Virus record (IMG/VR): IMGVR_UViG_3300045988_045637
Coordinates: 1-5,925 of that record
Direction: 5' to 3' (one strand)
Length of the DNA stretch: 5,925 nt
Source of the DNA: a virus
Part shown: one piece after another, positions 1 through 5,925 of the stretch
How positions within the stretch are numbered: position 1 is the stretch's first letter
Layout: each line of letters begins with the position of its first letter
Notes under the pieces: model-generated
The model's database searches: none
What the model saw: only the letters and a program-made list of their open reading frames with translations
What the model was told of the DNA's origin: nothing
Program-made: the position numbers and the translations under genes

Positions 1-119
1 ATTTTTTTTGTTACATAACCCGCAACATATCTATATGTTTCTGGAACCGCTTGTGCTATCTGTACTTGACCCATTCCCCATAGGTCTGCTAACCATTTAC
101 TGGTATAGTATCCGTTGTG
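1..119. repeat. Terminal redundancy of a circular genome (copy 1). Identical to 5807-5925.
   Basis: Hand alignment: a + 8 t + gttacataacccgcaacatatc...tccgttgtg at 1-119 matches 5807-5925 base for base. This implies a 5,806-nt circular unit. Confidence 0.95.
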
Positions 120-662
120 GTGAATCTTGTATAGATTTTCTAGGTCTTTTGGTCTCCATCCGTATAGAATCATGTGATAATGTGGTCTCGCTGTTTGTTC
201 TCCGTACTCACCGGCCACAAAATAGCGTAATTTGCCCCTGTAAGCCTTTCTGAGACGTTTTAAGAACTTTTGAATATCTTCATACAGCAAAATTTGAACA
301 CTACTAGGGAGCTTCTCTCCCGGCTTCCATGTGTACTGTACCTTTCGCATGATTTCACCTGTTTTTACTATCATGCCCGGTACATGGTCATCATCATAAG
401 TTAGCGTGATAAACCAGACTTCTTCTTTTGGATAGTCTCGTGCTTCCAGTTCGATTCTTGTCGTCCAATCTTCTCGTTGTCTGATTCTGCATCCAATACA
501 TTGCCCGCATGGAATTAACATGACTTTCGGATTATACATCAAATCTTCATATTTTAGCTGTTTCCCGCTTAGCTGTGAAAAGCGGGCGAGTGAATATACC
601 CGCCCGCTCTGCTCTCTATCGCCCGGGTTGTACAGCCTTATTAACGGCTTGTAACAACTCAT
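1..662 (-). CDS. VP4: Replication initiation protein VP4 (HUH rolling-circle endonuclease), 5' portion. It runs off the window start and continues at 5806 downward. The full CDS is 5449-5806 joined to 1-662 (1,020 nt, 339 aa).
   Basis: Manual translation from the ATG at 662-660: MSCYKPLIRLYNPGDRE...PCGQCIGCR...FITLTYD (RCR motif I, 396-413)...RPHYHMILYG (HUH motif II, 174-182)...YVAGYVTKK (two-tyrosine motif III, 6-29). The start codon overlaps the VP2 stop (ATGA, 659-662). AGGTGA lies about 9 nt upstream. Confidence 0.92.
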   Translation of the reverse strand, partial: MSCYKPLIRLYNPGDREQSGRVYSLARFSQLSGKQLKYEDLMYNPKVMLIPCGQCIGCRIRQREDWTTRIELEARDYPKEEVWFITLTYDDDHVPGMIVKTGEIMRKVQYTWKPGEKLPSSVQILLYEDIQKFLKRLRKAYRGKLRYFVAGEYGEQTARPHYHMILYGWRPKDLENLYKIHHNGYYTSKWLADLWGMGQVQIAQAVPETYRYVAGYVTKK

Positions 663-1531
663 TTTAGATAATCACCTGGCTTTCTTTTTGCGCCGTAGTC
701 TCCTGTTTTATTCTGCATTGGGTTTTCTGGTTTGTGTCCTACTTTGCTACTGCCTTTTGTTTTATTTGTGATATCTCCAATTGTTTTGTTTGTTTCGTTA
801 TCGATATTTGTTAGTGCTTTCATTAGGCCGTAAGGACTTAAATGTGTTTCACTTAGCATTTGATTCCAGCTTTGCGAAGCGTTATACCAATCTGATTTAC
901 TCCAACTTGTGCTGCTGTACGAGTTTGGAACAAATCCGTTGCTTCTGCTGACTCCTAGTGCGCTGCTGCTTGCTAGTCCCATGCTTGCTCCGCTGATTGT
1001 TCCTGCAGACCCTCCAGGTGTGCTTGCTCCACCGTTTGCAAATGCTAGAATTGGGTTTATACCTGCCTTTTTCATGTCCTCAACCGCTCTTTGATATGAT
1101 GTGTTGCTCATACGCTCTTGAAACTGTCTGTTTGCTAGTGCTTCGGCGCTGTTGTAATTCATTGCGGTTGTGTTTTCGATGTGGTTATATACGCCTTGCA
1201 TTATGGCTTGCATGGTGTTGTATCCCATCTGCTGAAGCATGCTTTTTTGGTTGTATTTTTGCTGTGCTATGCCCTCTGCGCTTTGATATCCATACGCTTG
1301 CTGTAAATATTTTGCGATTTGTTCGTCATTCGTACCGGATTGGCTCCCGCTTACGGATGCTCCACCGCCTTGGCTTACACTTCCTCCGCTGCTTTGTCCT
1401 GTTCCTTCGTTTCCCCAACCGCCAAAAGCGCCTGTAACGTTTTTTACTGCGCCTGTTATGCTTCCTATGCTTGTTGCGACATTGCCAAGTATGTTTACTC
1501 CTCTTAAAATTGCTCCCCAAGGAATTGCCAT
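659..1531 (-). CDS. VP2: DNA pilot / minor capsid protein VP2
   Basis: 290-aa ORF directly downstream of VP1. It has a hydrophobic Gly/Ser-rich N-terminus and the segment NTSYQRAVEDMKKAGINPILAF, which matches the conserved core I recall from microvirus pilot proteins. Its stop overlaps the Rep start. Confidence 0.85.
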   Translation of the reverse strand: MAIPWGAILRGVNILGNVATSIGSITGAVKNVTGAFGGWGNEGTGQSSGGSVSQGGGASVSGSQSGTNDEQIAKYLQQAYGYQSAEGIAQQKYNQKSMLQQMGYNTMQAIMQGVYNHIENTTAMNYNSAEALANRQFQERMSNTSYQRAVEDMKKAGINPILAFANGGASTPGGSAGTISGASMGLASSSALGVSRSNGFVPNSYSSTSWSKSDWYNASQSWNQMLSETHLSPYGLMKALTNIDNETNKTIGDITNKTKGSSKVGHKPENPMQNKTGDYGAKRKPGDYLK

Positions 1532-1539
1532 TTTAAAAT

Positions 1540-1560
1540 AGCCGGGTTTTTGGCCCGGCT
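1540..1560 (-). promoter_or_regulatory. Intercistronic hairpin between VP1 and VP2. Possibly a leaky terminator and/or a structure that bridges the SD and the start codon.
   Basis: Minus strand reads TAA-AGAAAGGAGGA-AGCCGGG-CCAAAAA-CCCGGCT-ATTTTAAA-ATG. The stem is 7 bp (6 G:C) with a 7-nt loop, followed by a short T run. Confidence 0.6.
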
Positions 1561-1571
1561 TCCTCCTTTCT

Positions 1572-3281
1572 TTACATTTTTTCCAGACCCGGCACGCTAT
1601 ACAGCGGCATACAGCGTGTTGTATTGTTCATTACTCGAATTGCTCCAAAAAATTGTGGCTCGCTCTGAACAATCAGTGTTCTTGCAATTTCTGTTTTGCC
1701 CTCGTTCATCCATTCTTGACTGAGTGTCGGTACCTTGTCGTAGTTGTCCGCATAGTGCCAGAAGTCCAGCGTTCCTTGTGCGTTACTCCGCATTTTGCCG
1801 CTTACTCTGTTCGGCTTCATGCGATAGTCGGCCCAGGCTTCTTGATAACCGAAGGTTTCATCATCTGTGCTCGTGCCAGTAAACATGATTTCCTTCTTCT
1901 TTACAGGCTGTTCGCCTAGATTTGCGAACTGCGGGAAGTAGTAGTCCAGTCTGTCTGAGCGGCTCCAGAACCTTTCTAAGCCCTGCTGGTAACTATGGTC
2001 GTGGCGTACACACATGACACCGATAACAAAGCCGTGCTCTTCAAAGCTCTTTGTAAAGGAACTTTCATTGATAGGTGTTACTGACATTGCACCTGTTTCA
2101 CCAATAGGTGTGTCGTTTTCGGTCTGCTGTCCGCTGGTCTGCACGATCTGATTAACATTCACGTGATAGCGTCCGCCACCTAGATACTCAGGCACCTGAA
2201 CCGTTTTGTCACTGATGCTTACGCCAAAAATTGCCCTTACCTGCTCACGGTATCGACTGCCGCCACGTGCCAGTGCTTCATAGTAGTGCTGAACTGCAAA
2301 AGCCTGTCGGAGTTGGTTGATGGTTGCCGCTTCGATTTTTGACAGGTCTGCGCCCAAGTATACTGCACTGCTTTCAGTGAGGCTATCATTTCCTTCGTTT
2401 ACGCCCAGTTTTACCGGGTTTCCTTCGCCTCCTGCTCCACCTACTAGCTGGATTCCTGCTGTTGCACTGTCAATTCCATTGAGGTAGTTTACTTCTGCAG
2501 ATTGGTTGATGTTTTTCAGTACTGTATCGCTGTATGGTCTTACAGGCGCATTCCCTGTCAGTCCGATTGTCACTTCCGGCCCTCGCTGAGGATACGGCAG
2601 ACACGATGAGAAATAATCGTGAAATTTGCTCACCGGTAGACAACGTGCGCCACTTACTGCATCTCTCAGAATCCCTTCTTCGTCACTGTCTTCGTTTAAA
2701 TCCGTATACTGAATCAGTGTTTCGTCTGTAAAGTTCGTCGCCGGATTTCCTACGTTTTGGTCTCTGAAAAATTCGTTCCAGATTTTCACATATGCCCGGA
2801 CTGGCAGTGCGTTTATGTACGTTATTCCGCTTCCTTCTTTTTCGTTGATTTTTGTCGGCACTCCCATGTAGTCCAGAATGCTTCCTTCTTTTGGCCCTTT
2901 CAGGTTTTCTTTTCCGTTTGTCTCTGCGTTTGATGCGATTTTGATTTTTGGCACTTCGTATGTTTTTGTTGGCATCCACGGTGCATCGTCTGCTTCTCCC
3001 ATGAAACGCTTGAAGTTGTCCCATAGAATTCTGTTAGGACAGTAGAAGTAATAAAAATCGATGTATGCATCGTCCATAACCGGAAATTTCGGTGTGCTCA
3101 TTCGGATGATCGCCGCGGTATTTACGCTGAAAGTATCGCCGGGTAATACTTCGTCAACGTAAAACGGGATGAGTTTTCCCGAGTCAAACGTTGTGAGAAT
3201 GTTCTGGTCTCTTTTGAATCGCGTTCGACTTACGTGCGTTTGCGGTACATTGTTGAAGTGCCTCTCGTTATTTCTGTTCAT
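1572..3281 (-). CDS. VP1: Major capsid protein VP1 (phiX174 F-like jelly-roll capsid protein)
   Basis: 569-aa ORF, the largest in the genome. The N-terminus ...RTRFKRDQNILTTFDSGKLIPFYVDEVLPGDTF...MSTPKFPVMDDAYIDFYYFYCPNRILWDNFKRFMGE matches the conserved gokushovirus VP1 pattern. Strong SD: AAGGAGGAAAGCA-ATG. Confidence 0.95.
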   Translation of the reverse strand: MNRNNERHFNNVPQTHVSRTRFKRDQNILTTFDSGKLIPFYVDEVLPGDTFSVNTAAIIRMSTPKFPVMDDAYIDFYYFYCPNRILWDNFKRFMGEADDAPWMPTKTYEVPKIKIASNAETNGKENLKGPKEGSILDYMGVPTKINEKEGSGITYINALPVRAYVKIWNEFFRDQNVGNPATNFTDETLIQYTDLNEDSDEEGILRDAVSGARCLPVSKFHDYFSSCLPYPQRGPEVTIGLTGNAPVRPYSDTVLKNINQSAEVNYLNGIDSATAGIQLVGGAGGEGNPVKLGVNEGNDSLTESSAVYLGADLSKIEAATINQLRQAFAVQHYYEALARGGSRYREQVRAIFGVSISDKTVQVPEYLGGGRYHVNVNQIVQTSGQQTENDTPIGETGAMSVTPINESSFTKSFEEHGFVIGVMCVRHDHSYQQGLERFWSRSDRLDYYFPQFANLGEQPVKKKEIMFTGTSTDDETFGYQEAWADYRMKPNRVSGKMRSNAQGTLDFWHYADNYDKVPTLSQEWMNEGKTEIARTLIVQSEPQFFGAIRVMNNTTRCMPLYSVPGLEKM

Positions 3282-3663
3282 TGCTTTCCTCCTTTTCTAC
3301 AGATACTTCTGCAACTTTTTTCTGATTTCGTTGGATTTCCATTGCCGCGGCTTGTGCTGTTGCTATCATGGCGTGATACTCGTGAATGTTTGTCGGCCAT
3401 TCCGTGATATCGATGATTTCATCTGTTTTTGCGCTGTCTGCCAGACTTTTGGCAAACTCAGGGTCAAAACTCGCTTTGCGGACAATGTTTTTGATGTCGC
3501 ACTCGTCTGCATAGCTTTCAATTTCAGCTTGAATGTCGATTGGTTCGGTTTCAATCAGCTTTTTTTCGCCTTTTTCGTCCTTGCCCCAGACGTACTGCTT
3601 GCGTAGTTTTTCGCCCGGATTTGAAAAGAAGGGCTTTCGCCCTTCCTCGTATCGTTTATTCAT
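3268..3663 (-). CDS. Putative internal scaffolding protein (VP3-like), 131 aa. This is the shortened version of track ORF 3268-3816.
   Basis: ATG at 3663 is preceded by GGGAGGG. It overlaps the upstream ORF's stop by 8 nt and the VP1 start by 14 nt. The protein is acidic and contains ADECDIKNIVRK, resembling the ..ECDIN.I..K motif I recall from gokushovirus VP3 scaffolds. The family assignment is from memory. Confidence 0.6.
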   Translation of the reverse strand: MNKRYEEGRKPFFSNPGEKLRKQYVWGKDEKGEKKLIETEPIDIQAEIESYADECDIKNIVRKASFDPEFAKSLADSAKTDEIIDITEWPTNIHEYHAMIATAQAAAMEIQRNQKKVAEVSVEKEESNEQK

Positions 3664-3898
3664 TCGGCTTGCCCTCCCAGACCTTATCCGGCTCGATGCT
3701 CTCAAATCGGCCGCTTTCATCGTCGAAGTTTGCGACGTGGTAGCCCTTGTAGTCCTCAGGCGACTGCCCAAGGAAGGTTTTTTCATCCTTTGCCATAATT
3801 GTGCACATCCGTGCAAACGTCTCGTTGCTCTTGCTTTCGCCGATGTAGCAGTAGCTTTTTGCTACGCTGTCGTAGATGCCATAGTATCCATGAATCAT
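3656..3898 (-). CDS. Small non-structural protein, gokushovirus VP5/ORF5-like
   Basis: 80-aa ORF with SD AAGGAGAAAAAAC-ATG. The pattern YDSVAKSY...FARM...SPEDYKGYHVANFDDESGRF resembles the YD.KA..Y / PEDY..(x)G.FDD.TG signature I recall from the small conserved gokushovirus protein encoded upstream of the structural genes. Confidence 0.6.
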   Translation of the reverse strand: MIHGYYGIYDSVAKSYCYIGESKSNETFARMCTIMAKDEKTFLGQSPEDYKGYHVANFDDESGRFESIEPDKVWEGKPNE

Positions 3899-3910
3899 GT
3901 TTTTTCTCCT

Positions 3911-3988
3911 TTACAGTCTGATGCCGCCCCGCATGGGTTTCTGGCTGAGGTTGATACTTTTCGTTTTTCGTGCCGTTACGTTGAACAT
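3911..3988 (-). CDS. Candidate 25-aa highly basic peptide (possible J/VP8-like DNA-packaging protein)
   Basis: Manual translation: MFNVTARKTKSINLSQKPMRGGIRL, with 6 K/R and no acidic residues. It fills an otherwise unexplained 97-nt gap. The ATG is 7 nt after the upstream TGA and its TAA lies immediately upstream of the next gene's SD. It has no SD of its own. Confidence 0.3.
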   Translation of the reverse strand: MFNVTARKTKSINLSQKPMRGGIRL

Positions 3989-3995
3989 ACGCTTG

Positions 3996-4241
3996 TCAGT
4001 GCGTGCCGGCATCCGCTGTCTGTGCTTCACTTGTGTACTCCCTTCTGATTAGCTCTAGCTCGATGTCGTTGGCCCATTTCTTCATAACCCAGATCCGGCT
4101 AATGATTTCTTCTGCATCTTTCAGTTCGGACACTTTCTTCATCATCTTGTATCCGGCTTCAATCTGCTTGTATAACCTTTCGGCTTCTAGCCTGAGTGTT
4201 TCTTCGGTCTGGTCTCTGACGTTCCATGTTTTAGTCAACAT
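3996..4241 (-). CDS. Hypothetical protein, 81 aa, predicted helical or coiled-coil
   Basis: ORF on the coding strand with charged, heptad-like composition (LRLEAERLYKQIEAGYKMMKKVSELKDAEEII). AAGGAGG lies upstream but 13 nt from the ATG. I recognised no motif. Confidence 0.55.
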   Translation of the reverse strand: MLTKTWNVRDQTEETLRLEAERLYKQIEAGYKMMKKVSELKDAEEIISRIWVMKKWANDIELELIRREYTSEAQTADAGTH

Positions 4242-4246
4242 TGTCT

Positions 4247-4351
4247 TTACTTTTCCTCCTTCAGAATGTGGTAAATCTCGTCCAGCTTTTCGAGGACGTT
4301 CTTAATTAGCTGGATTGCTTCCCTCAGGTCTTTGACCTTAATCAATGCCAT
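4247..4351 (-). CDS. Candidate 34-aa amphipathic helical peptide
   Basis: Manual translation: MALIKVKDLREAIQLIKNVLEKLDEIYHILKEEK. The ATG is 3 nt after the peptidase TAA with GGGGGTG upstream, and its TAA is 5 nt before the next ATG. It exactly fills the gap between 4241 and 4355. It is below the ORF-track size cutoff. Confidence 0.35.
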   Translation of the reverse strand: MALIKVKDLREAIQLIKNVLEKLDEIYHILKEEK

Positions 4352-4354
4352 GGG

Positions 4355-4738
4355 TTACACCCCCTTTCTGTATCGTTTTTCGCGCACATCAATGTGTGTG
4401 AAGTTTGTATATCTGACTATGCCGCCCTGTTCCATGATACTGTCCGCGTATTTTGCAACTTCTCTGCTGCTGTGTCCTTTCACTACGATGTCTGCTGCCA
4501 TTCCTTTGCAGTGGTAGCTGTTTGATGCTCCGTTTACTTTGCTGTTCCAGTTTGGTGTACGGTATCCGCTGCTGATAATGACCGGTGCGTTAAAGTGATT
4601 TCTGATCGTTTCTAAGATTGCGAGTAGCTCAGGTGACCATAAAAATTCTGTTGTTTTGTCTTTGCATCTAAACTCTTCTGCTTTGAAGTGTTGCGTTAGT
4701 CGGTCGTTGTTTGTTTGGTTTAAGATTGGTGTACTCAT
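4355..4738 (-). CDS. Zinc D-Ala-D-Ala-carboxypeptidase-type cell-wall peptidase (Peptidase M15, M15_3/M15A-like). Candidate lysin.
   Basis: 127-aa ORF with SD AAAGGTGATAAAAA-ATG. Motifs: FKAEEFRC, SGYRTPNWN, SYHCKGMAADI (H76, D83) and FTHIDV (H115). This is the H-x6-D...H zinc triad layout of the small phage/bacterial M15 peptidases. Confidence 0.8.
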   Translation of the reverse strand: MSTPILNQTNNDRLTQHFKAEEFRCKDKTTEFLWSPELLAILETIRNHFNAPVIISSGYRTPNWNSKVNGASNSYHCKGMAADIVVKGHSSREVAKYADSIMEQGGIVRYTNFTHIDVREKRYRKGV

Positions 4739-4793
4739 TTTTTATCACCTTTTAGCTCATAAAATTTATATGTTTCACGCTGGTCCCTTTTCG

Positions 4794-4973
4794 TCACATC
4801 CACATTATTTTGTTTTCTTTTTCTAGCTGGTGGATTCTTTGTCTTGACAGTTGGCAAGTCCTGTTATCCCAGCACCTCATCTTCTTGTTGTAAGTATAAG
4901 GGAACTTTATTCTGTTGTCAATTGGCGATTTGTACCATTTTACCTTTTTGTTTTCGGTGTATTCGTACATCAT
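4794..4973 (-). CDS. Hypothetical protein, 59 aa, first ORF after promoter P1. This is the shortened version of track ORF 4794-5027.
   Basis: ATGATG at 4973-4968 is preceded by AGAGAGGTAAGCAAT. The track's start at 5027 is a TTG that is actually part of the -35 box TTGACA. The protein is K/N/Y-rich with no recognised motif, and a second promoter lies inside the ORF. Confidence 0.45.
   Translation of the reverse strand: MMYEYTENKKVKWYKSPIDNRIKFPYTYNKKMRCWDNRTCQLSRQRIHQLEKENKIMWM
4893..4921 (-). promoter_or_regulatory. Promoter P2, sigma-70/sigma-A type, internal to the 59-aa ORF
   Basis: Minus strand: TTGACA (4921-4916), 17-nt spacer ACAGAATAAAGTTCCCT, then TATACT (4898-4893). It sits about 155 nt upstream of the peptidase start codon. 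Confidence 0.6.
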
Positions 4974-4998
4974 ATTGCTTACCTCTCTTTCTGACTCT

Positions 4999-5027
4999 AT
5001 TGTATCACATTTCTTTACGTTTGTCAA
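4999..5027 (-). promoter_or_regulatory. Promoter P1, sigma-70/sigma-A type with extended -10
   Basis: Minus strand: TTGACA (5027-5022), 17-nt spacer AACGTAAAGAAATGTGA, then TACAAT (5004-4999), with TG at the extended -10 position. An A/T-rich UP-like tract (GAAAAATTTT) lies just upstream, and an SD plus ATG about 20-30 nt downstream. Confidence 0.75.
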
Positions 5028-5053
5028 GTCCTCTGCAGAAAATTTTTCATTAG

Positions 5054-5104
5054 ATGGCCGCCGTTGCGCGCTACGCGGCGCAACTTCCAGCGAAGCGCGG
5101 CCGT
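5054..5104. other. GC-rich compound fold (predicted three-way junction)
   Basis: The outer stem pairs 5054-5061 with 5097-5104 (GGCCGC/GCGGCC core plus A:T and one G:T). Inner hairpin 1 is GTTGCGC (5063-5069) / GCGCAAC (5078-5084) with an 8-nt loop. The inner mini-hairpin is GCGAAGC (5090-5096). About 72% G+C by hand count, in an otherwise AT-rich spacer. Confidence 0.6.
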
Positions 5105-5140
5105 GACTTTCCCGCTCGATTCCGGACTGCTTCTATTGGG

Positions 5141-5243
5141 TTTTCAACATTTTCAACATAGTTTTCAACATTTCAACATTGTTAAACTTTAGCACAATAG
5201 AGTGTTTCAACAATTCAACAAGTTTTCAACAAATCTTTCAACA
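5141..5243 (+). repeat. Iteron array: 8 same-orientation copies of (T)TTCAACA in two clusters of four
   Basis: The TTCAACA core ends at 5149, 5158, 5170, 5178, 5212, 5220, 5231 and 5243. Four copies are the exact 9-mer TTTTCAACA (5141-5149, 5150-5158, 5162-5170, 5223-5231). Start-to-start spacing is 8-12 nt within clusters. The larger module AGTTTTCAACA...TTTCAACATTGTT occurs twice (5160-5183 and 5221-5248). Confidence 0.9.
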
Positions 5244-5288
5244 TTGTTTTTTGTTTATTTTTAACGCTCTAACGTTTTAAAATTATAG

Positions 5289-5305
5289 TTTTCAACTTTT
5301 CCACA
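5289..5305 (+). promoter_or_regulatory. Degenerate iteron TTTTCAACT overlapping by one base a DnaA-box-consensus 9-mer TTTTCCACA
   Basis: TTTTCCACA at 5297-5305 fits the relaxed DnaA box consensus TTWTNCACA at all 9 positions. TTTTCAACT is at 5289-5297. Both are in the same orientation as the iteron array. Confidence 0.5.
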
Positions 5306-5341
5306 TACCCTACTACTACGACTACAACAAGTTATATTATA

Positions 5342-5391
5342 ATACGTGCGCACGCGTGCGCGTGTAGTTTTCGCGTGCACGTGTGTGCGCG
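5342..5391. repeat. Two alternating purine-pyrimidine CG/TG tracts (25 nt and 20 nt) with nested palindromes
   Basis: Perfect R-Y alternation over 5342-5366 and 5372-5391, separated by GTTTT. Palindromes: CGTGCGCACG (5345-5354), GCGCACGCGTGCGC (5348-5361), CGTGCACG (5374-5381) and CACGTG (5378-5383). Confidence 0.85.
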
Positions 5392-5404
5392 ATTAGAATA
5401 ATAA

Positions 5405-5436
5405 AGCCCAGTACCTTACTTGATAGGTACTGGGCT
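5405..5436 (-). terminator. Rho-independent terminator downstream of Rep, marking the end of the single transcription unit
   Basis: Perfect 12-bp stem AGCCCAGTACCT / AGGTACTGGGCT with an 8-nt loop, 12 nt after the Rep TAA. On the minus strand it is followed by TTTATTATTCT. Confidence 0.75.
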
Positions 5437-5448
5437 AGGTGACACCAA

Positions 5449-5925
5449 TTATAAAATACCACGCTTTTTCGTTTGTTTTTTGGTGACGCGTTCTTTTGTC
5501 TCTAGGACTGTTTTATAGTCCTGTTCTTCTAGCTGTAGACGCTTCTGCTCTATGGCGTTTTTCTGTCTGTTTTGTTTAATTCTCCACAGTCTTTGTGGGT
5601 TTTCTGCTTCCATCTGCTTTTCGTAGTATCTTGGAATTTGCGCCCGTTTTCCGTTGGTGCATTGAATGTAGCCTTGCCGCCAGATTTCTGCTTTGTGTTC
5701 TTGGTAGTAGTGGTCTCCAAGACCTGGTTTTAGGCTCATGCAAGCAAACGGTTTCGTTTGTCCCAATTCGTAGTACGCATTGGCTTTCTTTCCGTCTATC
5801 TCGTACATTTTTTTTGTTACATAACCCGCAACATATCTATATGTTTCTGGAACCGCTTGTGCTATCTGTACTTGACCCATTCCCCATAGGTCTGCTAACC
5901 ATTTACTGGTATAGTATCCGTTGTG
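5449..5925 (-). CDS. VP4: Replication initiation protein VP4, 3' portion. The 143-aa track ORF 5449-5880 is only the part downstream of internal Met197. 5807-5925 duplicates 1-119.
   Basis: Open frame continues upstream of 5880 to the window end and is in frame with 1-662. It contains the catalytic motif YRYVAGYVTKK (5812-5835) and a basic C-terminal tail. TAA stop at 5449-5451. Confidence 0.92.
   Translation of the reverse strand, partial: HNGYYTSKWLADLWGMGQVQIAQAVPETYRYVAGYVTKKMYEIDGKKANAYYELGQTKPFACMSLKPGLGDHYYQEHKAEIWRQGYIQCTNGKRAQIPRYYEKQMEAENPQRLWRIKQNRQKNAIEQKRLQLEEQDYKTVLETKERVTKKQTKKRGIL
5807..5925. repeat. Terminal redundancy of a circular genome (copy 2). Identical to 1-119.
   Basis: Same hand alignment as for 1-119. 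The reading frame of Rep is preserved across the junction: the ATG at 5880 corresponds to position 74, and 662-74=588 is divisible by 3. Confidence 0.95.

Follow-up and report, generated by a model that had tools for sequence, protein, structure and literature searches.

A Peptidase_M15_3 gene in a variable slot of a gut gokushovirus genome and its possible accessory role in lysis

The DNA analysed here, referred to as the window, is the stretch of 5,925 nucleotides (nt) at positions 1 to 5,925 of the IMG/VR virus record IMGVR_UViG_3300045988_045637, and the gene of interest lies at 4355..4738 on its minus strand (4738->4355). It encodes a 127-amino-acid (aa), single-domain Peptidase_M15_3, a LAS-type zinc peptidoglycan peptidase according to Pfam, PHROG, residue conservation and an AlphaFold 2 (AF2) model. 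The plus-strand frame over 4355-4738 is full of stops, and the real open reading frame (ORF) is that of the minus strand, with a Shine-Dalgarno (SD) motif, AAAGGTGAT, 6 nt 5' of its ATG. The initial annotation had recognised in this 127-aa protein a full zinc triad and the motifs of small M15 peptidases, all of which were found, namely SGYR (S57-R60), SxHxxGxAxD (S74, H76, G79, A81 and D83) and HxD (H115 and D117). Its assignment to the endolysin-type M15 enzymes was confirmed by profile search, in which the protein matched Pfam Peptidase_M15_3 (PF08291, clan Peptidase_MD) at E 6.3e-25 and 87.8 bits (cut-off 23.2) over profile positions 2-108 of 108, and PHROG 894 'endolysin' at E 2e-35; the match to MepK (NCBIfam) was sub-threshold. 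As profile scores, these family matches are far above chance level.

The zinc and catalytic residues of the peptidase are R60, H76, D83, H115 and D117 (the H-D-H zinc ligands, the conserved Arg and the acid/base residue), each conserved at 97-100% in 131 microviral homologues that are 41-91% identical to the window copy. Because the catalytic residues are retained to this degree across divergent copies, we conclude that the gene encodes a predicted active enzyme under purifying selection. Over its 37-residue active-site core (residues 50-86), the peptidase shares 54% identity with the zinc DD-peptidase of Streptomyces albus (1LBU) and aligns there with the R/H/D region of that enzyme. The structure prediction that had been recommended with the initial annotation gave a model with a predicted local distance difference test (pLDDT) value of 73.8, which matches predicted viral M15 peptidases at template modelling scores (TM-scores) of 0.85-0.90 and several 'Microvirus mar' peptidases at lower TM-scores. 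Its best PDB matches were 1LBU, Ply500, ChiX, VanY and LysECD7, with weak Foldseek E-values, and bond specificity is therefore not inferable from structure. Judged from its sequence, the protein is a genuine M15_3 (LAS-type) zinc enzyme of the endolysin type in a gokushovirus.

The relatives scanned for the comparisons below comprised 50 microvirus genomes fetched via the peptidase and 51 fetched via the capsid protein VP1, 101 in all. The peptidase is fixed in the clade of the window, in which VP1 is at least 67% identical: 100 of the 101 genomes carry the block peptidase-ORF34-ORF81-VP8-VP5, always in the same order. ORF34 (4247..4351, minus strand), whose ATG lies 3 nt past the peptidase stop, encodes a conserved micro-protein of 34 aa, and ORF81 (3996..4241, minus strand), preceded by a strong SD motif (GAAGGAGGA), encodes a conserved helical protein of 81 aa. 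A search with divergent ORF34 members yielded the peptidase-less set, as the peptidase was absent from 38 of the 66 further gokushovirus loci that were selected in this way by an ORF34-like motif. The 20 peptidase-less loci examined share one order, with VP4, a non-coding region, an ORF34-like gene, an ORF81-like gene (12/20), VP8, VP3, VP1 and VP2, and with VP5 in about half of them. ORF34 and ORF81 are in turn missing from two other peptidase-bearing microviruses, Dulem virus 189 and MG945689, and in KX513864 an ORF34-like gene stands upstream of the peptidase. ORF34 and ORF81 thus occur without the peptidase, and the peptidase without them, which marks both as backbone genes; that they might be dedicated partners of the peptidase was rejected, since both occur in peptidase-less genomes.

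Inspection of the slot in 12 peptidase-less genomes revealed other small hydrophilic ORFs in place of the peptidase. From this comparative evidence, the peptidase is read as an insertion into the conserved backbone ORF34-ORF81-VP8-VP5-VP3-VP1-VP2-VP4, at a variable accessory slot that follows directly on the regulatory region. The interval from VP4 to the ORF34-like gene (L143-L185; 4794-5027 in the window) appears as a hot spot that holds either the peptidase or unrelated hydrophilic ORFs of 52-77 aa, one of them Cys-rich (CxxC-type). In the window, 4794..5027 (minus strand) is occupied by a hydrophilic, basic ORF of 77 aa from a TTG, or of 59 aa from an ATG at 4973 that has an SD motif; this variable ORF is found in 7 of the 50 and 2 of the 51 relatives (9/101), and neither it nor the other variable accessory ORFs gave any family match, with nothing significant in Pfam. 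Two sequence types of the peptidase, about 42-48% and about 62-91% identical to that of the window (L066-L116 versus L001-L050), occur in the clade with VP1 67-85% identical. Sequence comparison suggests that the peptidase may have been replaced or recombined independently of the backbone, and exchange of peptidases between microviral families has been reported (Kirchberger 2022, PMC9239249).

Since peptidase-less genomes with the same conserved genes must still leave their hosts, a core gokushovirus exit function has to exist. The 'missing holin' is then one aspect of the general gokushovirus lysis problem, with the peptidase as an add-on. The initial annotation had considered the export and lysis logic of this gene unresolved, which holds insofar as no export route was seen, whereas the puzzle is not peculiar to the gene, given the peptidase-less contigs of the same gene order.

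Transmembrane (TM) segments and signal sequences were predicted from Kyte-Doolittle hydropathy as a 19-residue mean (KD19) with a TM-grade threshold of 1.6, in place of SignalP/TMHMM. Residues 1-19 of the peptidase have a Kyte-Doolittle mean of -1.07, the KD19 maximum of the whole protein is 0.98, and the Pfam domain begins at residue 17, so that only 16 hydrophilic residues lie ahead of it, too few for a signal or signal-arrest-release (SAR) segment. By hydropathy, no signal peptide or SAR segment was found in the peptidase, and none of 129 distinct microviral copies reaches a KD19 of 1.6, in agreement with the hydrophilic N-terminus, free of any signal or SAR-like segment, that had been described at the outset. 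The N-terminal extensions of longer database homologues (136-176 aa) were considered as signal peptides and rejected, as they are mostly hydrophilic or basic and one belongs to a peptidase-ORF34 fusion; these upstream extensions are probably mis-called starts.

The search for a holin gave the same picture as the initial annotation, which had seen none, because no coding-strand ORF of at least 20 aa, in any frame of the window, reaches a KD19 of 1.6, and no conserved TM-grade ORF was found on either strand among the relatives scanned. The small neighbours of 59, 34, 81 and 25 aa had likewise been described as lacking a hydrophobic TM stretch, which is correct for the 59/77-, 34- and 81-aa ORFs, the 25-aa ORF not being identified with certainty. 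Among non-overlapping gene products, VP2 alone has any hydrophobic segment, namely its Gly-rich, moderately hydrophobic N-terminus (KD19 1.19), which is the most hydrophobic stretch in this set.

Several hydrophobic stretches were considered as TM or lysis candidates. The +1 frame of VP1 yields a hydrophobic peptide (TALLSVSCVYATTIV; 1976-2068, minus strand) that recurs in several relatives, in some as part of an ORF 30-99 aa long, and that is reminiscent of overprinted lysis genes such as phiX174 E. As an actual overprinted lysis gene this frame (2068-1976) was rejected, since in about half of 50 relatives a stop interrupts it just ahead of the stretch or inside it, and the hydrophobicity is probably a by-product of the conserved VP1 motif EEHGFVIGV (EEHGFVIGVMCVRH). 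A 41-aa ORF at 5462-5337 ('GFIILIA') is the translated Rep terminator hairpin with its T-run, and was dismissed. The plus strand is T-rich and therefore yields antisense ORFs of 88-171 aa that contain TM-like stretches; these were rejected too, because just 2-20 of the 101 relatives keep at least 80% of the ORF length open. Some peptidase-less relatives have a hydrophobic ORF of 27 aa in their non-coding region, which was likewise rejected, as the region itself is strongly conserved and Lys substitutions break the ORF in one relative. With respect to amurins, which are often small, overprinted membrane proteins that inhibit MraY, MurA or MurJ, the initial statement that none is evident was too strong. 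A conserved overprinted TM ORF of this type is absent among the relatives scanned, but soluble inhibitors of the Qbeta A2 type leave no recognisable sequence, and because amurins have no signature, their absence is not demonstrable from sequence.

The window consists of a circular genome of 5,806 nt plus a terminal redundancy of 119 nt (1-119 = 5807-5925). The earlier identification as a microvirus is well founded, and the genome has the features of Gokushovirinae (Microviridae), being circular and within the range of about 4.5-6 kb, with genes on one strand, a Phage_F capsid, a VP2 pilot, a VP4 Rep and a Chlamydia-phage-type scaffold (Chlamy_scaf) and ORF5 (Phage_ORF5). In GenBank it comes closest to gokushoviruses from the gut of humans, monkeys and pigs, with 74-81% nucleotide identity over no more than half of the genome, the best phage nucleotide match having 76-78% over about half and none reaching high identity. 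All recognisable genes lie on the minus strand, in the order VP4/Rep, terminator-like hairpin, about 420 nt of non-coding DNA, variable ORF, peptidase, ORF34, ORF81, VP8-like, VP5, VP3, VP1 and VP2. By circular translation, VP4/Rep has 339 aa in all, with its N-terminal part at 1..662 and its C-terminal part at 5449..5806 (positions 5807-5925 repeat 1-119); the ORF list gives the look of a fragmented Rep, which was rejected because the ORF is intact across the circular junction.

The other structural genes, all on the minus strand, are those for the VP2 DNA pilot protein (659..1531; 290 aa; phrog_8742, E 5e-115), the VP1 major capsid protein (1572..3281; 569 aa; Phage_F, E 3e-138) and the VP3 internal scaffolding protein (3268..3816), the translation of which matches Chlamy_scaf over residues 80-157 (Pfam E 7e-11) and the true start of which is probably an internal ATG near 3663. 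Two further ORFs had been overlooked in the initial annotation. One encodes a VP5-like protein (3656..3898, minus strand; Phage_ORF5, Pfam E 6.9e-13; phrog_1670), and the other (4030-3911; 3911..4030, minus strand) a highly basic (+11), VP8-like protein of 39 aa from a GTG start (phrog_10695, E 8e-11), which is conserved in 50/50 relatives at 90% identity and occupies the same position as the annotated DNA-binding/VP8 gene of peptidase-bearing relatives.

ORF34 is predicted to form a strongly amphipathic helix (hydrophobic moment about 0.7), with an invariant D-x-I-Y-H motif (core ILxxLDxIYHA) and a neutral to acidic tail; the protein is neutral to acidic, with a charge of -5 to +1 in nearly all variants, and its KD19 of 0.55 is not TM-grade. 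It is present in 46/50 peptidase-fetched and 50/51 VP1-fetched relatives and belongs to a family of 1,542 clusters at 90% identity, for which the contigs among the matches listed do not exceed microvirus genomes in size; searches of Pfam and PHROG assigned it to no family. The gap from the peptidase stop to the ORF34 ATG ranges from -1 to +4 nt among relatives, the frames vary and all three stop codons occur, a pattern that indicates translational coupling of ORF34 to the peptidase and led us to reject stop-codon readthrough, for which the two genes are in frame in the window. A natural in-frame peptidase-ORF34 fusion of 167 aa (P0029) was seen on a 1,442-nt contig, the stop being replaced and the junction reading ...RKGVQTTALIKVKD...; a sequencing error could explain it, or it could be a viable variant. 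ORF81 (KD19 0.24) occurs in 47/50 and 50/51 relatives and has no Pfam, PHROG or NCBIfam match.

Within the non-coding region, an intrinsic-terminator-like hairpin with a 12-bp stem, seven GC pairs and a T-run (5405..5436, minus strand) lies just past the Rep stop and is the only coding-strand terminator-like site in the scanned interval 4200-5600. Two sigma-70-type promoter-like sites, each matching the consensus at 11/12 positions, were found upstream of the peptidase on the minus strand, one with TTGACA, a 17-nt spacer and TG-extended TACAAT (4999..5027) and one with TTGACA, 17 nt and TATACT (4893..4921). Between the Rep terminator and the promoters, TGTTGAAA occurs in ten copies, seven of them exact, within about 165 nt (5142-5305, minus strand), and the whole window contains 18 matches at no more than one mismatch versus 8 expected. 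Pseudo-ORFs from this region are about 92% identical in 38/50 relatives, a sign of strong conservation in the non-coding DNA, which may contain a replication origin, iterons or binding sites for regulators. GC-rich imperfect palindromes (ACGTGCGCACG / CGTGCGCGTGTA, and others with CGCGC-rich arms) lie at 5335-5403 and 5062-5099 within the AT-rich non-coding region, which makes a putative origin or nick site possible there. The predicted folding of the GC-rich segment at 5040-5130 is not stronger than that of shuffled sequence (z = -0.12), and a search of Rfam found no RNA family.

The peptidase gene as such is not new in gokushoviruses, where it has been known since 2012, and the remark in the initial annotation that surveys had reported microviral M15 peptidases proved accurate (PMC3394797, PMC9239249). 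The 11 human-associated Microviridae in which Roux et al. 2012 (PMC3394797) reported M15_3 peptidases include five gokushoviruses; the authors proposed an endolysin role, showed that the genes were acquired horizontally and linked the gokushoviral copies to Faecalibacterium. According to Kirchberger et al. 2022 (PMC9239249), peptidases recur as accessory genes with a presumed lysis function in different microviral families, and M15 peptidases are also present in marine Occultatumvirinae. The window gene has the Pfam family, virus group, habitat and proposed endolysin role of the human-gut Gokushovirinae/Alpavirinae M15_3 peptidases (PMC3394797) and shows no essential difference from them. GenBank copies, to which it is 44-68% identical, are annotated as 'peptidase M15' (KX513877, KX513864 and KX513868) or 'similar to peptidase' (MG9451xx-MG9457xx series), and more than 450 public protein clusters, many on contigs of 5.4-6.0 kb, include metagenomic copies up to 91% identical.

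Similar single-domain proteins of the same family, about 115-130 aa long and 42-50% identical, are the SP6-like Autographiviridae endolysins (Zindervirus BP12B gp44 and Acadevirus PM93 gp43) and M15 peptidases of Vibrio phages. The homologues of Salmonella phage BP12B and Proteus phage PM93 (42-47%) are annotated as endolysins adjoining holin or membrane-protein genes, whereas the microviral copy has no such neighbours. The closest cellular copies, 43-50% identical over the catalytic domain, are those of Lachnospiraceae, Ruminococcaceae and Eubacteriales metagenome-assembled genomes (MAGs), and, as in PMC3394797, the nearest cellular homologues are found in Clostridia (Faecalibacterium-type) holin cassettes. 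Most Clostridia copies have 245-279 aa with an extra C-terminal region, which indicates that the microvirus kept the catalytic domain only, and are followed by a 92-94-aa ORF ('MKINWKVR...') with a hydrophobic stretch, which we read as the holin of the Faecalibacterium cassette described in Roux 2012 (PMC3394797). On one Lachnospiraceae contig, the homologue lies in a prophage lysis cluster beside an ORF that we read as a GH25 lysozyme and a protein with three TM segments. In Ruminococcaceae and Eubacteriales MAGs (L061-L065), the M15 and 'MKINWKVR...' cassette is flanked by a 276-aa ORF upstream and an ORF of about 479 aa ('MLFDIGIIGAGAVGS...') downstream. By analogy, the MAG cassette may be a domesticated phage lysis module, such as Roux 2012 (PMC3394797) noted for Faecalibacterium prausnitzii.

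phiX174 E and the amurins likewise represent small-genome phages without a holin, but amurins are non-enzymatic inhibitors, unlike the predicted enzyme of the window. The same LAS fold and zinc site as in the peptidase are present in the Streptomyces albus G D-Ala-D-Ala carboxypeptidase (1LBU), which we take to be MEROPS M15A, and in Escherichia coli MepK (YcbK). Those two enzymes have housekeeping roles, are secreted or periplasmic, and carry export signals or a wall-binding domain. Ebor Gp7, from a 'Tainavirinae' microvirus (PMC11980548), is likewise an accessory microviral wall hydrolase, likened here by role and not by enzyme similarity; it is the first experimentally verified peptidoglycan hydrolase of a single-stranded DNA phage, was active when purified and was present in trace amounts in virions by liquid chromatography-tandem mass spectrometry (LC-MS/MS). 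A predicted membrane protein of 45 aa, Gp1, is present in Ebor as well (PMC11980548), whereas no such protein is encoded in the window's clade. The M23 metallopeptidase lysins of picobirnaviruses (Gan & Wang 2023, PMC10500164) again place a peptidoglycan metallopeptidase in a tiny phage genome, although of a different peptidase family, and one of them, expressed alone, lyses E. coli. In the more distant Dulem virus 189 (L117; PP511348), an annotated 58-aa hypothetical protein directly after VP2 (2607-2783) has an N-terminal TM helix with a KD19 of 2.8 that the window's clade does not have; it may be a holin-like partner, of uncertain specificity, as TM-like ORFs occur in many coding-strand frames there.

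Strong SD motifs precede eight of ten genes of the window. Bacteroidota use SD sequences little, so that this count argues against a Bacteroidota host. CRISPR spacers in a large infant-gut virome study predict Clostridiales hosts for gut gokushoviruses, and together with the SD motifs and the Clostridia homologues these predictions make a Gram-positive host among the Clostridiales plausible.

As the best explanation, which we hold with slightly better than even confidence, the peptidase would serve as an accessory, endolysin-like lysis booster and not as a self-sufficient lysis system. It would be a horizontally acquired, single-domain M15_3 zinc peptidase, predicted to cut peptidoglycan peptides, in a large mammalian-gut gokushovirus clade with probable Clostridiales hosts. 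The enzyme would be translated in the cytoplasm from one long transcript shared with the structural genes and would build up there harmlessly, until the core gokushovirus exit function, also present in peptidase-less relatives, compromises the membrane or wall; it could then reach the sacculus and speed wall breakdown and virion release. The identity, conservation and context of the peptidase and its lack of export features are directly supported, while the steps of this mechanism are what we infer. In favour of this role, homologues in tailed phages and Clostridia prophages adjoin holins, in agreement with PMC3394797. Several points weigh against it. The release step is assumed, as no membrane-permeabilising function is known from any gokushovirus; the peptidase has no wall-binding domain, although one is usual in endolysins of Gram-positive hosts; its nearest tailed-phage homologues infect Gammaproteobacteria, while the host of the window is an inferred one; the upstream promoters are consensus matches only; and cleavage of peptidoglycan is a prediction.

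The peptidase might instead act at entry, with a few packaged or capsid-bound copies opening the host peptidoglycan, thick if the host belongs to the Clostridiales, for the VP2 pilot tube, and perhaps at both entry and exit as in phi6 P5. Such a role would need no export pathway, so that the holin problem would disappear, and it agrees with the traces of Ebor Gp7 in virions detected by LC-MS/MS (PMC11980548), with the use of one lytic protein for entry and lysis by double-stranded RNA phages (review PMC10707117) and with the Clostridiales hosts predicted for gut gokushoviruses. However, the structural set VP1, VP2, VP3 and VP8 is unchanged in peptidase-less gokushovirus contigs, the peptidase gene is free-standing in a variable slot and unfused to a structural protein, its homologues belong to lysis cassettes and not to structural modules, and the Ebor enzyme is only a trace virion component, so we consider an entry enzyme rather unlikely.

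Another mechanism that would dispense with a holin is a cytoplasmic 'catalytic amurin', the enzymatic counterpart of phiX174 E, Qbeta A2 or LysM, which would destroy soluble or lipid-linked wall precursors (UDP-MurNAc-pentapeptide at its D-Ala-D-Ala end or another bond, free D-Ala-D-Ala, or lipid I/II on the cytoplasmic face), starve cross-linking and thereby lyse growing cells. The closest solved relative, 1LBU, with its 54% identical core, was deposited as a 'muramoyl-pentapeptide carboxypeptidase', and the peptidase has neither an export signal nor a TM partner. A further parallel is VanX, presumably of family M15D. According to a passage of PMC11514776 that cites Sohya 2014, over-expressed cytoplasmic VanX lyses E. 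coli, D-Ala-D-Ala incorporation being blocked, and small phages typically lyse their hosts via a block of wall synthesis (PMC3394797, PMC10707117). Nevertheless, close homologues are ordinary endolysins accompanied by holins, and since MepK, a member of the same family, attacks cross-linked sacculi, family membership does not fix the substrate. Recombinant M15/amidase endolysins (T5, T7), moreover, build up in the E. coli cytoplasm without lysis. On this evidence a precursor-destroying enzyme is improbable; if true, a whole gut gokushovirus clade would lyse by enzymatic starvation of cross-linking, a holin-free mechanism undescribed for any phage.

The large family, conserved motif and amphipathic helix of ORF34 make it a candidate partner of the peptidase, and it has accordingly to be asked whether an unconventional genome-encoded partner (ORF34, ORF81 or the Gly-rich VP2 N-terminus) could release the enzyme as a non-canonical membrane disrupter. 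The coupling of ORF34 to the peptidase at gaps of -1 to +4 nt, its position on either side of the peptidase depending on clade, the one natural fusion (P0029), its high hydrophobic moment and the leading hydrophobicity of the VP2 N-terminus among non-overlapping gene products would all fit such a function. Yet the distribution of these genes speaks against it, as ORF34 is found in the 38 peptidase-less loci and ORF81 in 12 of the 20 examined, while Dulem virus 189 and MG945689 carry the peptidase without either; in addition, neither protein has a TM-grade stretch, and ORF34 is neutral to acidic, unlike cationic membrane-active peptides. We therefore regard a releasing partner among these products as quite improbable. 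That the gene is a decaying or functionless passenger acquired by recombination would fit its horizontal origin and patchy distribution among microviruses, but is hardly credible for a gene that 100/101 close relatives retain, that lies in a genome at the size limit of microviruses and whose catalytic residues are 97-100% conserved across copies 41-91% identical.

Gokushoviruses are among the most abundant human-gut phages, yet none of them has, to our knowledge, an established lysis gene or exit mechanism, so a conserved wall peptidase that is clearly enzymatic by sequence offers an experimental handle on gokushovirus exit. The gene having been known since 2012, the window adds no new kind of system; its comparative addition is an enzyme inserted in a backbone that exists without it, which shifts the question to the core exit function. 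The remaining interest thus lies in the release mechanism, recast as one that belongs to the gokushovirus backbone and not to the peptidase gene.

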